A stretch of 64,000 nucleotides of DNA. Source: Enterobacteria phage ATK47. The stretch lies in sequence record NC_055708.1; one strand, given 5' to 3'. The notes under the pieces were generated by a model. The model did no database searches. It saw nothing but the letters and a program-made list of their open reading frames with translations, and was not told the DNA's origin. The translations under genes and the position numbers were made by a program. Position 1 is the stretch's first letter, and each line of letters opens with the position of its first letter. Shown here piece by piece: positions 3,435 to 41,707 of this stretch.

Positions 3435-3509
3435 GGCCCTGTAGCTCAATGGGAGAGCTGTCAGCTCATAACTGATAGGTAGCTGGATCGAAACCAGCCA
3501 GGGTCACCA
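3435..3509 (+). tRNA. tRNA with CAU anticodon (Met or lysidine-modified Ile), includes encoded CCA
   Basis: Hand-folded cloverleaf: acceptor ggccctg/cagggtc, D stem gctc/gagc, anticodon stem gtcag/ctgat, loop CTCATAA, T stem gctgg/ccagc. Confidence 0.75.
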
Positions 3510-3512
3510 ATT

Positions 3513-3589
<77 letters not shown>

Positions 3590-3952: not shown

Positions 3953-4263
3953 GAAGCCGGGTCGCTACCGGCAAGTCGTCGGACTGATGTTCCCTGAGTA
4001 AGGACTGGTCTTAATAAATCTTTATGATTTGTTAATATCCCCTTACATCACAGCAGAAACGGCGCACAAAATTATCGATTCGAGGAAATATCTTTGCCGT
4101 AATCCGAGTAGCGTTTTTGACGGAACGTTCGGATATGGTCGAGATATGGCCTTTTAAAAATATTGAGTAGCGTCAACTGCTTAATAACCAGGTTCAAATC
4201 CCGGCGTTTCGTACAAACACTTGCCTTAGCAGGTGGAACCCCGACAAGGTTGCCGCAAGGCTT

Positions 4264-4290
4264 AGCCCCTTCCGAAAGGTTGGGGCTTTT
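4264..4290 (+). terminator. rho-independent terminator hairpin (gcccc..GAAA..ggggc + T-run), copy 1 of 3
   Basis: GC stem, tetraloop, U-run. Confidence 0.55.
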
Positions 4291-4335
4291 GGCATAATAA
4301 TAAATAGATAAGTTAATTAACTTAGGAAAAGCAAC

Positions 4336-14636: not shown

Positions 14637-14941
14637 TGACCACTATTGAAGTTTTTGAATATTGTTATAACAGCCCAGTATGCAATAAAAGGGCTCTTGT
14701 AGAAAATTATGAGATTTACCATTTTAAACCTAAACGATATCGTTTGACTAAAGGCCCGTTCGCAGGGCAGCAGGTTCTTTGTACTGCTCCTAATGCACGG
14801 TTGATGACTAGTATTCCGCATTTCAAAATGGAATTTATTGATGGGCCATTTAAGGGATTAATCACTCAAAGTTTAATGGCGTTTAATTCCGACCCATTTT
14901 TGATTAAAGAAAAATCTTGGATAAATTTATTTTCTAATTGA
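14633..14941 (+). CDS. hypothetical protein
   Basis: 102 aa ORF, ATGA overlap. Confidence 0.4.
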   Translation: MMTTIEVFEYCYNSPVCNKRALVENYEIYHFKPKRYRLTKGPFAGQQVLCTAPNARLMTSIPHFKMEFIDGPFKGLITQSLMAFNSDPFLIKEKSWINLFSN

Positions 14942-14947
14942 GGTTAT

Positions 14948-15310
14948 ATGAAAGCATATCAAATTCTTGAAGGTGAACATAAAGGCACTATTTATTTTGA
15001 AGACTGTACTCAAGCCCGGATTATTGTCTCTAAGACTTTTAAAGAAGACGCTATTGTAGATCCAGAAATTTTCTACGGTTTGAATGCTCGTGAAATTGAA
15101 ATTGAACATCAACCTAAAGTTAAAATTGAAGGTGGTCAACACCTGAACGTTAACGTTCTGCGTCGCGAAACTCTGGAAGATGCAGTTAAGCATCCAGAAA
15201 AATATCCGCAGCTGACCATCCGTGTATCCGGTTATGCAGTTCGCTTTAACTCTCTGACTCCGGAACAGCAGCGCGACGTTATCGCTCGTACCTTTACCGA
15301 GAGTCTATAA
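14948..15310 (+). CDS. grcA: autonomous glycyl-radical cofactor (GrcA/YfiD-like)
   Basis: C-terminus [59 protein letters not shown] matches enterobacterial GrcA glycyl-radical domain; host-like codon usage in 3' half. Confidence 0.8.
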
Positions 15311-30789: not shown

Positions 30790-31263
30790 ATGTTATTATC
30801 AGGCGCAAAATATAAAGAAGAAAAACAAAAATTTTATGATGCACAGAACGGTAAGTGTCCTATTTGCCACCGTGAATTAGACCCTGATGTTCAAGGTAAC
30901 CATCTTGACCATGACCACGAATTAAAAGGGCCAAAAGCCGGTAGAGTTCGTGGTTTACTATGTAACCTGTGCAATGCAGCAGAAGGTCAAATGAAGCATA
31001 AGTTCAACCGTTCCGGTTTGAAAGGTCAAAACGTTGACTACTTAGAATGGCTTGAAGCTCTTCTTGCTTATTTGAAACAAGATTATTCTGATAATAATAT
31101 CCATCCTAATTTTGTTCCGGATAAAACTAAAGAGTTCTCAAGACTAGGTAAAGAGGAAATGATGACCGAGATGCTTCAAAGAGGATTTGAATATAATGAA
31201 TCTGATACTAAAACACAATTAATAGCTTCATTCAAAAAGCAGCTTAGAAAGAGTTTAAAATGA
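30790..31263 (+). CDS. 49: endonuclease VII (Holliday junction resolvase)
   Basis: MLLSGAKYKEEKQKFYDAQNGKCPIC..HLDHDHEL..LCNLCNAAEGQ; near-identical to remembered T4 gp49; 157 aa. Confidence 0.9.
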   Translation: MLLSGAKYKEEKQKFYDAQNGKCPICHRELDPDVQGNHLDHDHELKGPKAGRVRGLLCNLCNAAEGQMKHKFNRSGLKGQNVDYLEWLEALLAYLKQDYSDNNIHPNFVPDKTKEFSRLGKEEMMTEMLQRGFEYNESDTKTQLIASFKKQLRKSLK

Positions 31264-33077
31264 AAATTGAAAAAGAAATTGAAGGATTAATTTATAAAAC
31301 TAATAAAGATCTTTTGAACGAGAATGCTAATAAAGATTCTCGTGTTTTTCCAACTCAACGGGACCTTATGGCTGGTATTGTGTCTAAGCACATTGCCAAA
31401 AATATGGTCCCGTCTTTTATTATGAATGCGCATGAAAGCGGAATCATTCATATGCATGATATTGATTATTCTCCTGCTCTTCCATTTACTAATTGCTGTT
31501 TAGTCGATTTAAAGGGGATGCTTGAGAATGGATTTAAATTAGGCAATGCTCAAATTGAAACGCCTAAATCGATTGGTGTTGCTACTGCAATTATGGCACA
31601 AATTACTGCACAAGTTGCTTCCCATCAATACGGCGGAACGACTTTTGCTAATGTAGATAAAGTACTTTCTCCTTATGTTAAACGCACCTATGCAAAACAT
31701 ATTGAGGATGCAGAAAAATGGCAAATCGCTGATGCGTTGAATTATGCTCAATCCAAAACAGAAAAAGATGTCTATGACGCATTCCAAGCTTATGAATATG
31801 AAGTAAATACTCTCTTTAGTTCAAACGGACAAACGCCTTTTGTAACAATTACATTTGGTACTGGAACTGATTGGACCGAACGAATGATTCAGAAGGCAAT
31901 TCTTAAAAACCGCATTAAAGGTCTTGGTCGTGATGGAATAACTCCTATTTTCCCTAAACTTGTTATGTTTGTCGAAGAGGGTGTTAATCTTTATAAAGAC
32001 GATCCGAACTATGATATTAAGCAACTCGCTCTAGAGTGTGCAAGCAAAAGAATGTATCCTGACATTATTTCTGTTAAGAATAATAAAGCTATTACCGGTT
32101 CTTCAGTTCCAGTTTCTCCAATGGGTTGCCGTAGTTTCTTGAGCGTATGGAAAGATTCGACCGGTAATGAAATTCTTGATGGACGTAATAATCTCGGTGT
32201 TGTAACACTGAATCTTCCTCGTATCGCATTAGATTCTTATATTGGAACACAGTTCAATGAACAGAAATTTGTTGAATTATTCAACGAACGAATGGATCTG
32301 TGCTTTGAAGCTTTGATGTGTAGAATTAGTTCCTTAAAAGGAGTTAAAGCGACTGTTGCTCCTATTCTTTACCAAGAAGGTGCATTCGGGGTTCGTCTTA
32401 AACCTGACGACGATATAATTGAGTTATTTAAAAACGGTAGAAGTTCAGTGTCTTTAGGATACATTGGTATTCATGAATTGAATATTCTTGTTGGCCGTGA
32501 TATTGGACAAGAAATTTTAACTAAGATGAATGCTCATCTTAAACAGTGGACTGAAAGAACTGGATTTGCTTTTAGCTTGTATTCTACACCTGCTGAAAAC
32601 CTTTGTTATCGTTTCTGTAAACTCGACACAGAAAAATACGGAAGTGTAAAGGATGTCACTGATAAAGGCTGGTACACTAATAGTTTCCATGTTTCAGTAG
32701 AAGAAAATATTACTCCGTTTGAAAAGATTTCTCGTGAAGCGCCATATCATTTCATTGCGACAGGTGGTCACATTTCTTATGTTGAACTTCCAGATATGAA
32801 AAACAATTTAAAGGGACTTGAGGCTGTCTGGGATTATGCTGCACAACATTTAGATTATTTTGGTGTTAATATGCCAGTAGATAAGTGTTTTACATGCGGA
32901 AGCACCCATGAAATGACTCCTACTGAAAACGGATTTGTTTGTTCAGTTTGCGGAGAAACTGATCCTAAAAAGATGAACACTATAAGAAGGACCTGCGGTT
33001 ATTTGGGAAATCCGAACGAGCGCGGATTTAATCTAGGCAAAAATAAAGAAATCATGCATAGGGTTAAACACCAATGA
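31260..33077 (+). CDS. nrdD: anaerobic ribonucleoside-triphosphate reductase NrdD
   Basis: 605 aa; C-terminal glycyl-radical motif RRTCGYLG and Zn ribbon CFTCGS..CSVCG. Confidence 0.9.
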   Translation: MKIEKEIEGLIYKTNKDLLNENANKDSRVFPTQRDLMAGIVSKHIAKNMVPSFIMNAHESGIIHMHDIDYSPALPFTNCCLVDLKGMLENGFKLGNAQIETPKSIGVATAIMAQITAQVASHQYGGTTFANVDKVLSPYVKRTYAKHIEDAEKWQIADALNYAQSKTEKDVYDAFQAYEYEVNTLFSSNGQTPFVTITFGTGTDWTERMIQKAILKNRIKGLGRDGITPIFPKLVMFVEEGVNLYKDDPNYDIKQLALECASKRMYPDIISVKNNKAITGSSVPVSPMGCRSFLSVWKDSTGNEILDGRNNLGVVTLNLPRIALDSYIGTQFNEQKFVELFNERMDLCFEALMCRISSLKGVKATVAPILYQEGAFGVRLKPDDDIIELFKNGRSSVSLGYIGIHELNILVGRDIGQEILTKMNAHLKQWTERTGFAFSLYSTPAENLCYRFCKLDTEKYGSVKDVTDKGWYTNSFHVSVEENITPFEKISREAPYHFIATGGHISYVELPDMKNNLKGLEAVWDYAAQHLDYFGVNMPVDKCFTCGSTHEMTPTENGFVCSVCGETDPKKMNTIRRTCGYLGNPNERGFNLGKNKEIMHRVKHQ

Positions 33078-33544
33078 ATTATGATAGATTTTATCCTTGC
33101 GATTTTGTGAATGGCCCTGGTTGTAGGGTCGTTCTTTTCGTTACAGGGTGTTTGCATAAATGCGAAGGGTGTTATAATAAATCAACATGGAATGCTAGAA
33201 ATGGTGTTCCATTCACTGGTGAAACACTAGAACAATTAATTGAATGTTTGAATAATGATTATATAGAAGGATTAACTATAACCGGAGGTGACCCTCTCTA
33301 TCCTGATAACCGAGATGTTATTCATTGCATTGTTCAAACAGTAAAAAATCTTTATCCTAATAAAAGCATTTGGTTGTGGACAGGATATACGTTTGAAGAT
33401 ATTAAACAACTAGAAATGCTTAAATATGTTGATGTTATTATTGATGGGAAGTATGAGAAAAATCTTCCGACCAAAAAACTGTGGCGAGGATCAGATAATC
33501 AGCGACTTTGGTCAAATACCGATGGGGTGTGGAAACATGATTAA
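33074..33544 (+). CDS. nrdG: anaerobic RNR activating protein NrdG (radical SAM)
   Basis: Cys cluster GCLHKCEGCYN; downstream of nrdD. Confidence 0.8.
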   Translation: MNYDRFYPCDFVNGPGCRVVLFVTGCLHKCEGCYNKSTWNARNGVPFTGETLEQLIECLNNDYIEGLTITGGDPLYPDNRDVIHCIVQTVKNLYPNKSIWLWTGYTFEDIKQLEMLKYVDVIIDGKYEKNLPTKKLWRGSDNQRLWSNTDGVWKHD

Positions 33545-39796: not shown

Positions 39797-40022
39797 CTAT
39801 GAAATCCATCGTCACGAATTTAGTATTGGTGACGGTTATATTGGTATCGTTGAATGGACTGAGAATTACGAGGAATCAACTCCTCGTTTCTTTGGAACAA
39901 TGTATGTTACCTGTGAGTACGCACCAGGTGTTGTTATGTATGCAGAACTAGATGAATATTTTGCTGATAGGGATGACATGTTAAAATATGTAGAGGACTT
40001 CATTCGAAGAGAATACATATGA
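39780..40022 (+). CDS. hypothetical protein
   Basis: ORF from ATG at 39780. Confidence 0.4.
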   Translation: MMTKTDYEIHRHEFSIGDGYIGIVEWTENYEESTPRFFGTMYVTCEYAPGVVMYAELDEYFADRDDMLKYVEDFIRREYI

Positions 40023-41707
40023 AATCATTTAAATTAAATCGTGTTCGTTATCAAAACATCATGTCGGTAGGTGGGAATCCTATTGATATCCAATTAGATA
40101 AAGTCCAAAAGACATTAATCACTGGTAAAAATGGTGGTGGTAAATCTACGATGTTAGAAGCCATTACTTTCGGACTTTTCGGTAAACCATTTCGTGATGT
40201 TAAGAAAGGACAAATCATTAATAGCACGAACAAGAAAGAGCTCTTAGTTGAGCTTTGGATGGAATTCGATGATAAAAAATACTTCATTAAACGAGGCCAA
40301 AAGCCCAATATTTTCGAAATCTCCGTTGACGGTGTTCGTCTTGATGAATCTGCCAGCAGTCGTGACTTCCAAGAAGAATTTGAACGTAGCATCGGAATGT
40401 CATACGCGTCTTTTAAACAGATCGTTGTGCTTGGGACGGCAGGGTATACCCCTTTCATGGCTCTTAGCACCCCTGCTCGCAGAAAGCTTGTTGAAGACTT
40501 ATTAGAAGTTGGAACACTAGCTGAAATGGATAAAATCAATAAGTCTCAAGTTCGAGAACTTAATTCCCAGGGACAAGTTCTCGATGCCAAGAAAGATGGT
40601 ATTATCCAACAAATTAAGATTTATAACGAGAATATCGAACGTCAAAAGAAATTATCTGGCGATAATGTAGCGCGTCTACAGAATATGTATGACGACCTAG
40701 CCAAAGAAGCTCGTTCATTAAAAGCAGAAATTGAAGAAGCTAACGAGCGTCTACTTAATATCGTTCTTGACGAAGACCCTACTGAGGCATTCAACAAGAT
40801 CGGACAAGAAGCATTCTTGATTAAATCTAAAATTGACTCATATAACAAAGTTATTAAGATGTATCATGATGGCGGTACATGTCCTACTTGCGCATCACAG
40901 TTGCACCAGGGTGACCCTATTGTCTCTAAGATTACCGATAAGCTTCATGAATGTAATCACTCATTCGAGCAACTTACCTGCCACAGAGATAATCTGAGTG
41001 TCCTAGTGGACGAATATCGAGCTAATGTTAAGACTAAACAGGACCTTGCATCCGATATCCGTACCAAGAAACAAGCAATGATTGCCACTATTGATAAAGC
41101 TAAGAAAGTTAAAGCTGCAATAGAGCAAGCCTCGGCGGAATTTATCGACCATGCCGATGAGATAGCTTTGCTTCAAAAAGAACTTGATAAAATCATTAAA
41201 ACAAAATCAGATATCGTTCTTGAAAAATACCATCGTGGTATTATCACAGATATGTTAAAAGATTCTGGTATTAAAGGTGCTATCATTAAAAAATATGTGC
41301 CTCTGTTCAACAAGCAGATTAACCATTATCTTAAAATCATGGAAGCCGATTACGTGTTTTCTATTGATGAAGAATTCAATGAATCTATAAAATCACGTGG
41401 TCGTGAAGATTTTAGTTATGCTTCATTTAGTCAAGGTGAAAAGGCACGTATCGATATCGCATTGTTGTTTACATGGCGAGATATTGCTGAAAAGGTCTCT
41501 GGTGTTAGAATCAATACATTAATTATGGACGAAGTCATGGATTCCGCGACTGATTCTGAAGGTATTAAAGCTATTTCAACAATTCTTAACTCTCTAACCG
41601 ATGCAAACGTGTTTATAATTAGTCACAGAGACCATGACCCACAAGCTTATGGACAACATCTTCAGATGAGTAAAGTTGGACGATTTACTGTAATGTCTGT
41701 TTCATAA
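40019..41707 (+). CDS. 46: recombination nuclease ATPase subunit gp46 (Rad50/SbcC-like)
   Basis: Walker A GKNGGGKST, long coiled coil with Zn hook CPTC, C-terminal signature/Walker B LIMDEV; 562 aa. Confidence 0.9.
   Translation: MKSFKLNRVRYQNIMSVGGNPIDIQLDKVQKTLITGKNGGGKSTMLEAITFGLFGKPFRDVKKGQIINSTNKKELLVELWMEFDDKKYFIKRGQKPNIFEISVDGVRLDESASSRDFQEEFERSIGMSYASFKQIVVLGTAGYTPFMALSTPARRKLVEDLLEVGTLAEMDKINKSQVRELNSQGQVLDAKKDGIIQQIKIYNENIERQKKLSGDNVARLQNMYDDLAKEARSLKAEIEEANERLLNIVLDEDPTEAFNKIGQEAFLIKSKIDSYNKVIKMYHDGGTCPTCASQLHQGDPIVSKITDKLHECNHSFEQLTCHRDNLSVLVDEYRANVKTKQDLASDIRTKKQAMIATIDKAKKVKAAIEQASAEFIDHADEIALLQKELDKIIKTKSDIVLEKYHRGIITDMLKDSGIKGAIIKKYVPLFNKQINHYLKIMEADYVFSIDEEFNESIKSRGREDFSYASFSQGEKARIDIALLFTWRDIAEKVSGVRINTLIMDEVMDSATDSEGIKAISTILNSLTDANVFIISHRDHDPQAYGQHLQMSKVGRFTVMSVS

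Follow-up and report, generated by a model that had tools for sequence, protein, structure and literature searches.

The vs.6 locus of phage ATK47

The DNA considered here, referred to below as the window, is a stretch of 64,000 nucleotides (nt) from Enterobacteria phage ATK47 (sequence record NC_055708.1), analysed at its full length. It contains an ATG-to-TAA open reading frame (ORF) of 120 amino acids (aa), which lies exactly at the coordinates predicted for it (Table 1). The 2.2 kb of the window that was tested is 100% identical to Enterobacteria phage ATK48, a Mosigvirus, that is, an RB69-like relative of the T-even phages, and the sequence and annotation of ATK48 were used for the comparisons of the window's vs.6 gene. 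In that annotation the gene is described as "similar to T4 AAD42676; Vs.6". The order of the cluster, vs.8-vs.7-vs.6-vs.5-vs.4-regB, is conserved upstream of regB in the annotations of both ATK48 and RB69. The ORF is thus a known gene, the Mosigvirus ortholog of T4 vs.6, whose product is also called Y06I. The T4 protein has the same length, the same neighbourhood, an identical C-terminal 60 aa and a tract derived from E. coli as well; it differs at 8 of the 120 positions (93% identity, with 93.3% to T2), and all eight substitutions are in the N-terminal half. A promoter and terminator scan round vs.6 returned 12 promoter-like sites compared to 9.5 in shuffled sequence, which is not above expectation.

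Table 1. Features of the vs.6 locus and of the nrdD-nrdG block in the window
Feature	Position	Strand	Basis or remark
Upstream vs.7-like ORF, TGA stop	14939-14941	+	Overlapped by the vs.6 Shine-Dalgarno sequence
Shine-Dalgarno sequence GAGG	14940..14943	+	4 nt before the vs.6 ATG; read from the sequence
vs.6/Y06I ortholog, GrcA-like phage autonomous glycyl-radical cofactor, 120 aa	14948..15310	+	ORF, Pfam, phrog_1209, 6owr, ATK48 annotation
AT-rich phage-specific 5' part, gene nt 1-178, aa 1-59	14948..15125	+	GC, GC3, nt identity
Host-derived patch, gene nt 179-350, aa 60-116/117, encoding the glycyl-radical domain	15126..15297	+	171/172 vs MG1655 grcA
Gly95 codon GGT, predicted glycyl-radical site in the RVSGYAV motif	15230..15232	+	Alignment to 6owr and 1h16
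Terminal codons ACC GAG AGT CTA TAA	15298..15310	+	Sequence comparison with phages and host
vs.5-like ORF, 74 aa	15310..15534	+	ATG overlaps the vs.6 TAA; ORF list, annotation, profile match
nrdD, class III (glycyl-radical, formate-dependent) ribonucleotide reductase	31260..33077	+	Pfam NRDD E=2.6e-171 and Gly_radical
nrdG, radical-SAM activase of NrdD	33074..33544	+	Pfam Fer4_12 E=7.5e-49 plus Radical_SAM

The first-pass annotation, made from the letters of the window alone, had called the product a GrcA-like protein, and the profile and structure searches bear this out. The Pfam Gly_radical family (PF01228) matches aa 59-101 with E=1.8e-18, over domain positions 64-106 of 106, and the phage family phrog_1209 matches the full length of the protein with E=1.3e-62 (aa 1-120 on profile positions 1-121). 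The best match among solved structures is E. coli GrcA, also called YfiD (NMR structure 6owr, E=2.8e-42). The next is the C-terminal domain of pyruvate formate-lyase (PFL, the product of pflB), the segment that a spare-part protein replaces: residues 696-759 of 1h16 are homologous to aa 57-120, that is, over 64 aa (E=3.2e-26). In the alignment to both structures, Gly95 of the phage protein falls on Gly102 of GrcA and on the Gly734 loop of PflB. The structural hallmarks of GrcA are present, namely a small stand-alone protein (of the ~14 kDa class), the RVSGYAV loop and homology to the tail of PFL.

The N-terminal half is another matter. On TIGR04365, the equivalog model for the GrcA/YfiD family (IPR011140), the phage protein scores 159.1 bits, below the cutoff of 170 and over profile positions 23-126 only, compared to 234 bits for E. 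coli GrcA; it falls short because its N-terminus is divergent. The phage protein is 7 aa shorter than E. coli GrcA, and its N-terminal ~59 aa are only weakly similar. The protein alignment begins at aa 21/22 and is of low identity, with the first ~20 aa unaligned, so the part comprising aa 1-59 appears, as judged from this alignment, to be distantly homologous to the N-terminal region of GrcA from about aa 21. Given the divergent N-terminus, the functions of this half may differ from those in GrcA. Some Tequatroviruses lack two codons of this half, which leaves a Vs.6 of 118 aa (phage OES_C-2, L098:179-535; P0012), and the N-terminal half therefore tolerates insertions and deletions. The second of these, P0012, is listed at NCBI as "autonomous glycyl radical cofactor GrcA [Escherichia coli]"; it is of the phage Vs.6 type, with 118 aa, and comes from a contig of 167,969 bp, apparently the genome of a T4-like phage deposited under E. 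coli.

The NCBIfam families GrcA2 and GrcA3 (NF008341 and NF038360) share the glycyl-radical spare-part domain with the phage protein (E=1e-27 to 5e-31). They differ from it in being only ~80 aa long and lacking the N-terminal region, and the phage protein scores well under their cutoffs. On sequence grounds, the product is best placed in the phage Vs.6/Y06I family, as a protein that would work like GrcA. Neither the gene nor its biochemical role is new, and current phage records annotate the gene as GrcA.

A host-identical patch in the 3' half of the gene

The two halves of vs.6 look as if they came from different genomes. The earlier reading that the C-terminal ~60 residues match enterobacterial GrcA proved to be exact, as the last 60 residues are identical to those of E. 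coli K-12 GrcA at 60 of 60 positions. At the nucleotide level, gene nt 179-350 differ from MG1655 grcA by a single mismatch in 172 nt, and this mismatch is synonymous. Another four synonymous differences lie in the last 4 codons, so that the last 60 codons hold 5 differences from E. coli grcA, all of them synonymous. By comparison, the 5' 178 nt have ~50% identity to host grcA in a global alignment and are barely alignable. Whether taken as nucleotides or as protein, the similarity of the 3' half to host grcA goes far beyond chance and beyond the level of a shared motif.

The composition of the gene changes at the same place. The contrast between a host-like 3' half, rich in CTG, CGT and CCG codons, and an AT-rich 5' half had been noticed at first sight, and the counts agree with it: GC is 0.326 in nt 1-178 and 0.494 in nt 179-350 (the window mean is 0.372), and GC3 is 0.19 in the 5' part compared to 0.43 in the 3' part. 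Among the leucine, arginine and proline codons of the 3' half there are five CTG, three CGT, three CGC and two CCG; the 5' half has zero CTG or CCG. Of all 172-nt windows in the 64 kb, no more than 0.04% reach this GC content.

A megablast search with the window against 5,426 complete E. coli genomes found the patch to be the sole segment of the 64 kb that matches E. coli. Window positions 1-25000 gave the same number of match locations as the patch alone, and the other 39 kb gave zero matches in these genomes. There are three spots in the window as GC-rich as this, of which the patch is one. Another, window positions 4121-4293, is free of ORFs and overlaps rnaC ("species 1 RNA"), a small stable RNA annotated in ATK48 and lying at about 4075-4213 of the window; it matched no Rfam family and nothing in E. 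coli. The third, at 40315-40494, is inside a 562-aa ORF (40019-41707) that resembles T4 gp46, a recombination nuclease subunit, and has no match in the E. coli genomes. A host origin of these two spots was considered and rejected, as both lack E. coli matches. Elsewhere in the window, the ATK48 annotation places adjacent genes for tRNA-Met (CAT) and tRNA-Arg (TCT) at 3435-3589.

At the very end of the gene, the sequence is of the phage type again. The codons ACC GAG AGT CTA are synonymous with ACT GAA AGC CTG of the host, and the last three of them, GAG AGT CTA, are common to the distant phages RB16 and Matisse. T4 differs at this junction, where it reads ACT GAA AGT TTG. The GAGAG at the end of vs.6 may act as the Shine-Dalgarno sequence of the vs.5-like gene.

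A phage gene beneath the patch

Phage-type sequence is found on both sides of the tract, and the 5' part (nt 1-178) is 87.8% identical to T4. Between T4 and ATK48, dS is 0.43 in the 5' half compared to 0.15 in the 3' half. The phages RB16, Matisse and CC31 carry the same gene at the same place without a host-identical tract, with 78-84% nt identity to any host. In RB16 (L007:301-663), all 60 of the 60 residues are identical to E. coli GrcA at 83% nt identity and a dS of ~1.7, which indicates strong purifying selection on the domain and shows independent evolution under that constraint. Matisse (L008:301-663), a relative of RB16 that infects Klebsiella, has the Klebsiella-type residues LLDAVEH, including a codon change of three bases from GAA to CTG. 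The residues of RB16 and Matisse mean that host matching at the protein level exists without a recent long patch.

These comparisons bear on the proposal in the first-pass annotation that the switch in composition reflects recent acquisition of the gene or recombination with the host gene. The recombination part stands, because 171 of 172 nt are identical to host grcA, E. coli is the nearest host and the flanks are of the phage type. The acquisition part does not: by the sequence comparisons, the patch is a conversion of a diverged phage homolog that was there before, rather than a freshly acquired gene end.

Over a tract of 180 nt, identity is 97.2% to E. coli, 92.8% to E. albertii and 91.1% to Citrobacter, declining with the relatedness of the hosts. 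In the host, grcA is uniform from end to end and keeps a conserved position on the chromosome (ung-grcA), between ung and eamB, as opposed to the AT-rich, lytic early-region cluster that houses the phage gene. The direction of transfer was therefore from E. coli grcA to the phage. The host pflB gene was also considered as a donor and rejected: it matches the tract at 78.8% at best compared to 97% for grcA, and its ~78% identity in both protein and DNA compares with 100% (protein) and 97-99% (DNA) for grcA.

Recurrence and host specificity among phages

The patch is far from private to ATK47. With E. coli grcA as the query, there are 751 matches among 50,697 phage records, of which 631 are at 95-99% identity. 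The matches listed start at host nt 199-200, with the exception of a 39-nt fragment that borders a record edge, and none of those listed covers the 5' half of grcA. The same in-frame mosaic gene recurs in hundreds of phage genomes sequenced independently of one another, T4, T2 and RB69 among them. In T4, the tract is identical at 183 of 185 nt to grcA of several natural E. coli strains, and both differences are in the last two codons. A Klebsiella grcA query (an allele of the K. variicola cluster in which a rare P-to-S change is found) matches no more than 84 phages, at 90-96.5%, and these are without exception phages of Klebsiella or Raoultella.

Eighteen diagnostic sites separate E. coli grcA from Klebsiella grcA. 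The patch has the E. coli state at all 18, as do RB69 and T4 (18/18 in ATK48, RB69 and T4), while the Jiaodavirus UTI-K4 has the Klebsiella state at 16/18 compared to 0/18 (Fisher p=4e-8). Within E. coli there is a CGC/CGT polymorphism at tract site 39, and both alleles are found among the phages: ATK47, ATK48 and RB69 have the K-12-type C, and T4, OES_C-2, FL31 and WFbE185 have T. The edges of the tract vary as well, with at least five different haplotypes at the 3' junction and at least two at the 5' junction. E. coli-like sequence runs to the stop codon in OES_C-2, to GAA in T4, to ACT in RB69 and up to TTC only in T4_ev240/UAB60; at the 5' end, FL31 has phage-type bases across the first ~18 nt of the tract. 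Within the tract, every phage has a closer match in E. coli than in any other phage, and the differences are private, giving a star-like pattern. Taken together, these sequence patterns point to at least two independent host-to-phage conversions, one of the E. coli type and one of the Klebsiella type, and probably to several. Part of the diversity within the E. coli phages could come from phage-phage recombination.

Two other phages show further changes at this locus. In the Klebsiella phage vB_KpnM_W2-7 (L103:171-533, at about nt 370-415), the gene encodes VMNREMLLDAVEH inside a tract that resembles Klebsiella grcA, and the first part of this segment is PflB-type sequence (NVNVMNREMLLDA). This suggests a short extra conversion, with host pflB or else an unusual grcA allele of the host as its source. 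In phage JSE (L009:756-1005), a homing endonuclease gene lies directly downstream of vs.6, and double-strand breaks near it could stimulate recombination at the locus in some lineages.

How the patch may have arisen

The nucleotide comparisons show that host DNA has taken the place of the conserved half of the gene by way of homology. They are best explained by gene conversion, in which the conserved 3' half of the diverged phage homolog was overwritten by homologous recombination with the chromosomal grcA of the infected cell, leaving a patch of ~170 nt from E. coli between flanks of the phage type. T-even recombination is proficient with plasmid-borne homology. The same recombination functions would act on fragments of the host chromosome during infection. 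The 5' limit of the patch would be set where the homology between host and phage collapses, at EGGQHLNV, the start of the domain. The 3' limit, which falls within the last few codons, would be where homology ends at the stop codon, and may perhaps also reflect the need to keep the ribosome-binding context (GAGAG) of the downstream gene, although this last limit looks weak because T4 lacks GAGAG.

Could such a gene have come about without recent recombination? If a T-even ancestor had acquired grcA only once, long ago, and purifying or codon-usage selection had frozen the 3' half ever since, this would agree with the very strong purifying selection on the C-terminal domain (the identity of RB16 at 60/60 residues and a dS of 1.7) and with a 5' junction that coincides with the boundary of amino-acid conservation. 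Selection on protein or codons, however, cannot yield identity at synonymous sites to the extent of 171 in 172 nt. Nor can it account for synonymous E. coli states at 18/18 sites in E. coli phages compared to 2/18 in Klebsiella phages, or for a tract without a mismatch between T4 and natural E. coli alleles, and RB16, Matisse and CC31, which are under the same constraint, stand at 78-84% nt. As far as can be judged from sequence, the synonymous-site data effectively refute a frozen ancient gene, which is highly improbable. An artefact, in the form of a chimeric assembly or of host DNA contaminating the record, has the abrupt switch in composition in its favor and nothing else. Its probability is negligible, and it is already refuted by replication across records, since the same in-frame mosaic recurs in hundreds of independent phage genomes, with phage-type flanks and an intact, overlapping start codon of the next gene.

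A closer contest concerns how often the conversion took place. There may have been a single conversion in each host genus, after which phage-phage recombination spread and reshuffled the converted allele among co-infecting phages. Tequatro- and Mosigviruses do co-infect E. coli and readily recombine, and variable endpoints, such as the first 18 nt of FL31, could stem from recombination between converted and unconverted alleles. On the other hand, both site-39 alleles of E. coli occur in phage tracts, the tracts form a star in which each phage is nearest E. coli, and the 3' endpoints differ between OES_C-2, T4 and RB69. A single conversion per genus is thus rather unlikely, though it deserves to be taken seriously. 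The best explanation overall, and one that very probably holds, is that the gene is the vs.6/Y06I ortholog, a spare part for PFL, whose 3' half has been gene-converted repeatedly by host grcA.

The repeated conversion itself could be either selected, with the domain kept matched to the host, or a neutral by-product of recombination with fragments of host DNA. A bolder version, for which the chances seem about even, holds that the grcA allele of the most recent enterobacterial host keeps replacing the glycyl-radical half of vs.6 with its own sequence. The patch would then be a natural, datable record of recent host use and a rare case of ongoing conversion from chromosome to lytic phage in phages that degrade host DNA, maintained perhaps because an exact match to PFL and its activase PflA is advantageous.

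A probable spare part for pyruvate formate-lyase

The function of the protein is best approached from T4. As presented in PMC8683613 with reference to Wagner et al. 2001 (BBRC 285:456), T4 Y06I receives a glycyl radical from PFL activase in vitro and restores the activity of PFL cleaved by oxygen; the same account names Y06I and YfiD/GrcA as the only two validated "spare part" proteins. For the ATK47 protein, we infer the role of a PFL spare part by carrying this in vitro activity over from the T4 ortholog. The protein presumably shares with E. coli GrcA both its activation by PflA and its ability to stand in for the C-terminus that PflB loses to O2 cleavage. Host PflA would put the radical on Gly95 in the RVSGYAV loop, and the C-terminal domain, being identical to that of host GrcA, would dock onto PFL molecules whose glycyl-radical tail has been cleaved by O2, bringing their activity back. 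During a microaerobic or anaerobic infection, this would sustain the output of acetyl-CoA/ATP and formate. Formate is the reductant of class III ribonucleotide reductase (RNR), and it could therefore also serve the phage's own NrdD.

The first-pass annotation had pointed to the genes for NrdD and its activase NrdG at 31260-33544, and Pfam confirms both. The frames of nrdD and nrdG overlap by 4 nt, and the last 4 nt of a gene for endonuclease VII (gp49-like; window 30790-31263) lie within nrdD, so that the three genes form one tightly coupled unit. That annotation had also left two outlets for the protein, support of host anaerobic metabolism or support of NrdD during infection. The activity of the T4 ortholog in vitro is in line with the host PFL part. 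A direct spare-part role for NrdD was rejected on sequence, as BLASTP against the phage NrdD gives E=5.5 with the Gly site unaligned; the glycyl motifs are RRTCGYLG in NrdD and IRVSGYAV in vs.6. An indirect link between vs.6 and NrdD through formate is plausible.

A rival idea is that the protein serves the phage NrdD rather than host PFL, either by lending a spare domain to NrdD that O2 has cleaved or by being a substrate of NrdG. Both nrdD and nrdG are encoded by the phage, and Nolan et al. 2006 (PMC1524935) speculate about a role in nucleotide metabolism. In two unrelated large phages, a GrcA-like gene follows immediately downstream of nrdD (Escherichia jumbo phage A4, L012:1-657) or of nrdG (Aeromonas phage ZPAH1, L014:1-640), a gene order which suggests that the spare-part protein and anaerobic ribonucleotide reduction may be functionally connected. 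Against a service to NrdD stand the lack of sequence similarity to the NrdD C-terminus, a domain that is GrcA at 60/60 residues and ~78% identical to the C-terminus of PflB, and a distance of 16 kb between vs.6 and nrdDG in this phage; in addition, T4 Y06I works with PFL and PFL-AE, according to the account in PMC8683613. A service to NrdD is accordingly quite improbable. So is a decoy that manipulates host fermentation by titrating PflA or by occupying PFL and redirecting carbon flux, with the divergent N-terminus providing some other activity. The high divergence of the N-terminal 59 aa from GrcA, with the first ~20 aa unalignable, and a score under the GrcA equivalog cutoff would fit such a decoy. 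Against it, the T4 ortholog restores PFL activity in vitro (as given in PMC8683613), and a spare part that works would require just such perfect conservation of the domain for docking and the radical.

Relation to other systems and significance

Host-phage intragenic recombination has reportedly been described in the psbA and psbD genes of cyanophages. That case is alike in that an auxiliary metabolic gene of a T4-like phage carries patches of host-type sequence and GC content from the host homolog. The gene, the host group (Enterobacteriaceae here) and the phage group are different, and the vs.6 patch is limited to one domain, has a nearly fixed 5' limit and is sometimes identical to extant host alleles.

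No report of a host-genus-specific, recurrent conversion of vs.6 was found in the searchable literature, the main T4 genome review (Miller 2003, PMC150520) lying outside that scope; Petrov 2010 has nothing on conversion of vs.6. For the GrcA-like gene, Nolan 2006 (PMC1524935) notes only a Pfam hit next to the speculation mentioned above. What may be new is the evolutionary pattern, which is of moderate interest; in itself the gene offers no novelty. The first-pass annotation proves sound both in what it observed and in how it interpreted it, but no new system stands behind it: the gene is well characterised, and it is the turn taken by its evolution that is instructive.

In hundreds of strictly lytic phages of the T-even type, vs.6 has a patch whose sequence is specific to the genus of the host and up to 100% identical to extant host alleles. 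This makes vs.6 a clean natural system for measuring recombination between the host chromosome and virulent phages, and its patch a possible marker of recent host use. It also means that what looks like extreme conservation in auxiliary metabolic genes can be the result of repeated conversion, and not of selection alone. Finally, the locus supports the idea that enteric phages invest in the fermentation of their hosts, possibly for the formate needed by the anaerobic RNR, under fluctuating oxygen.
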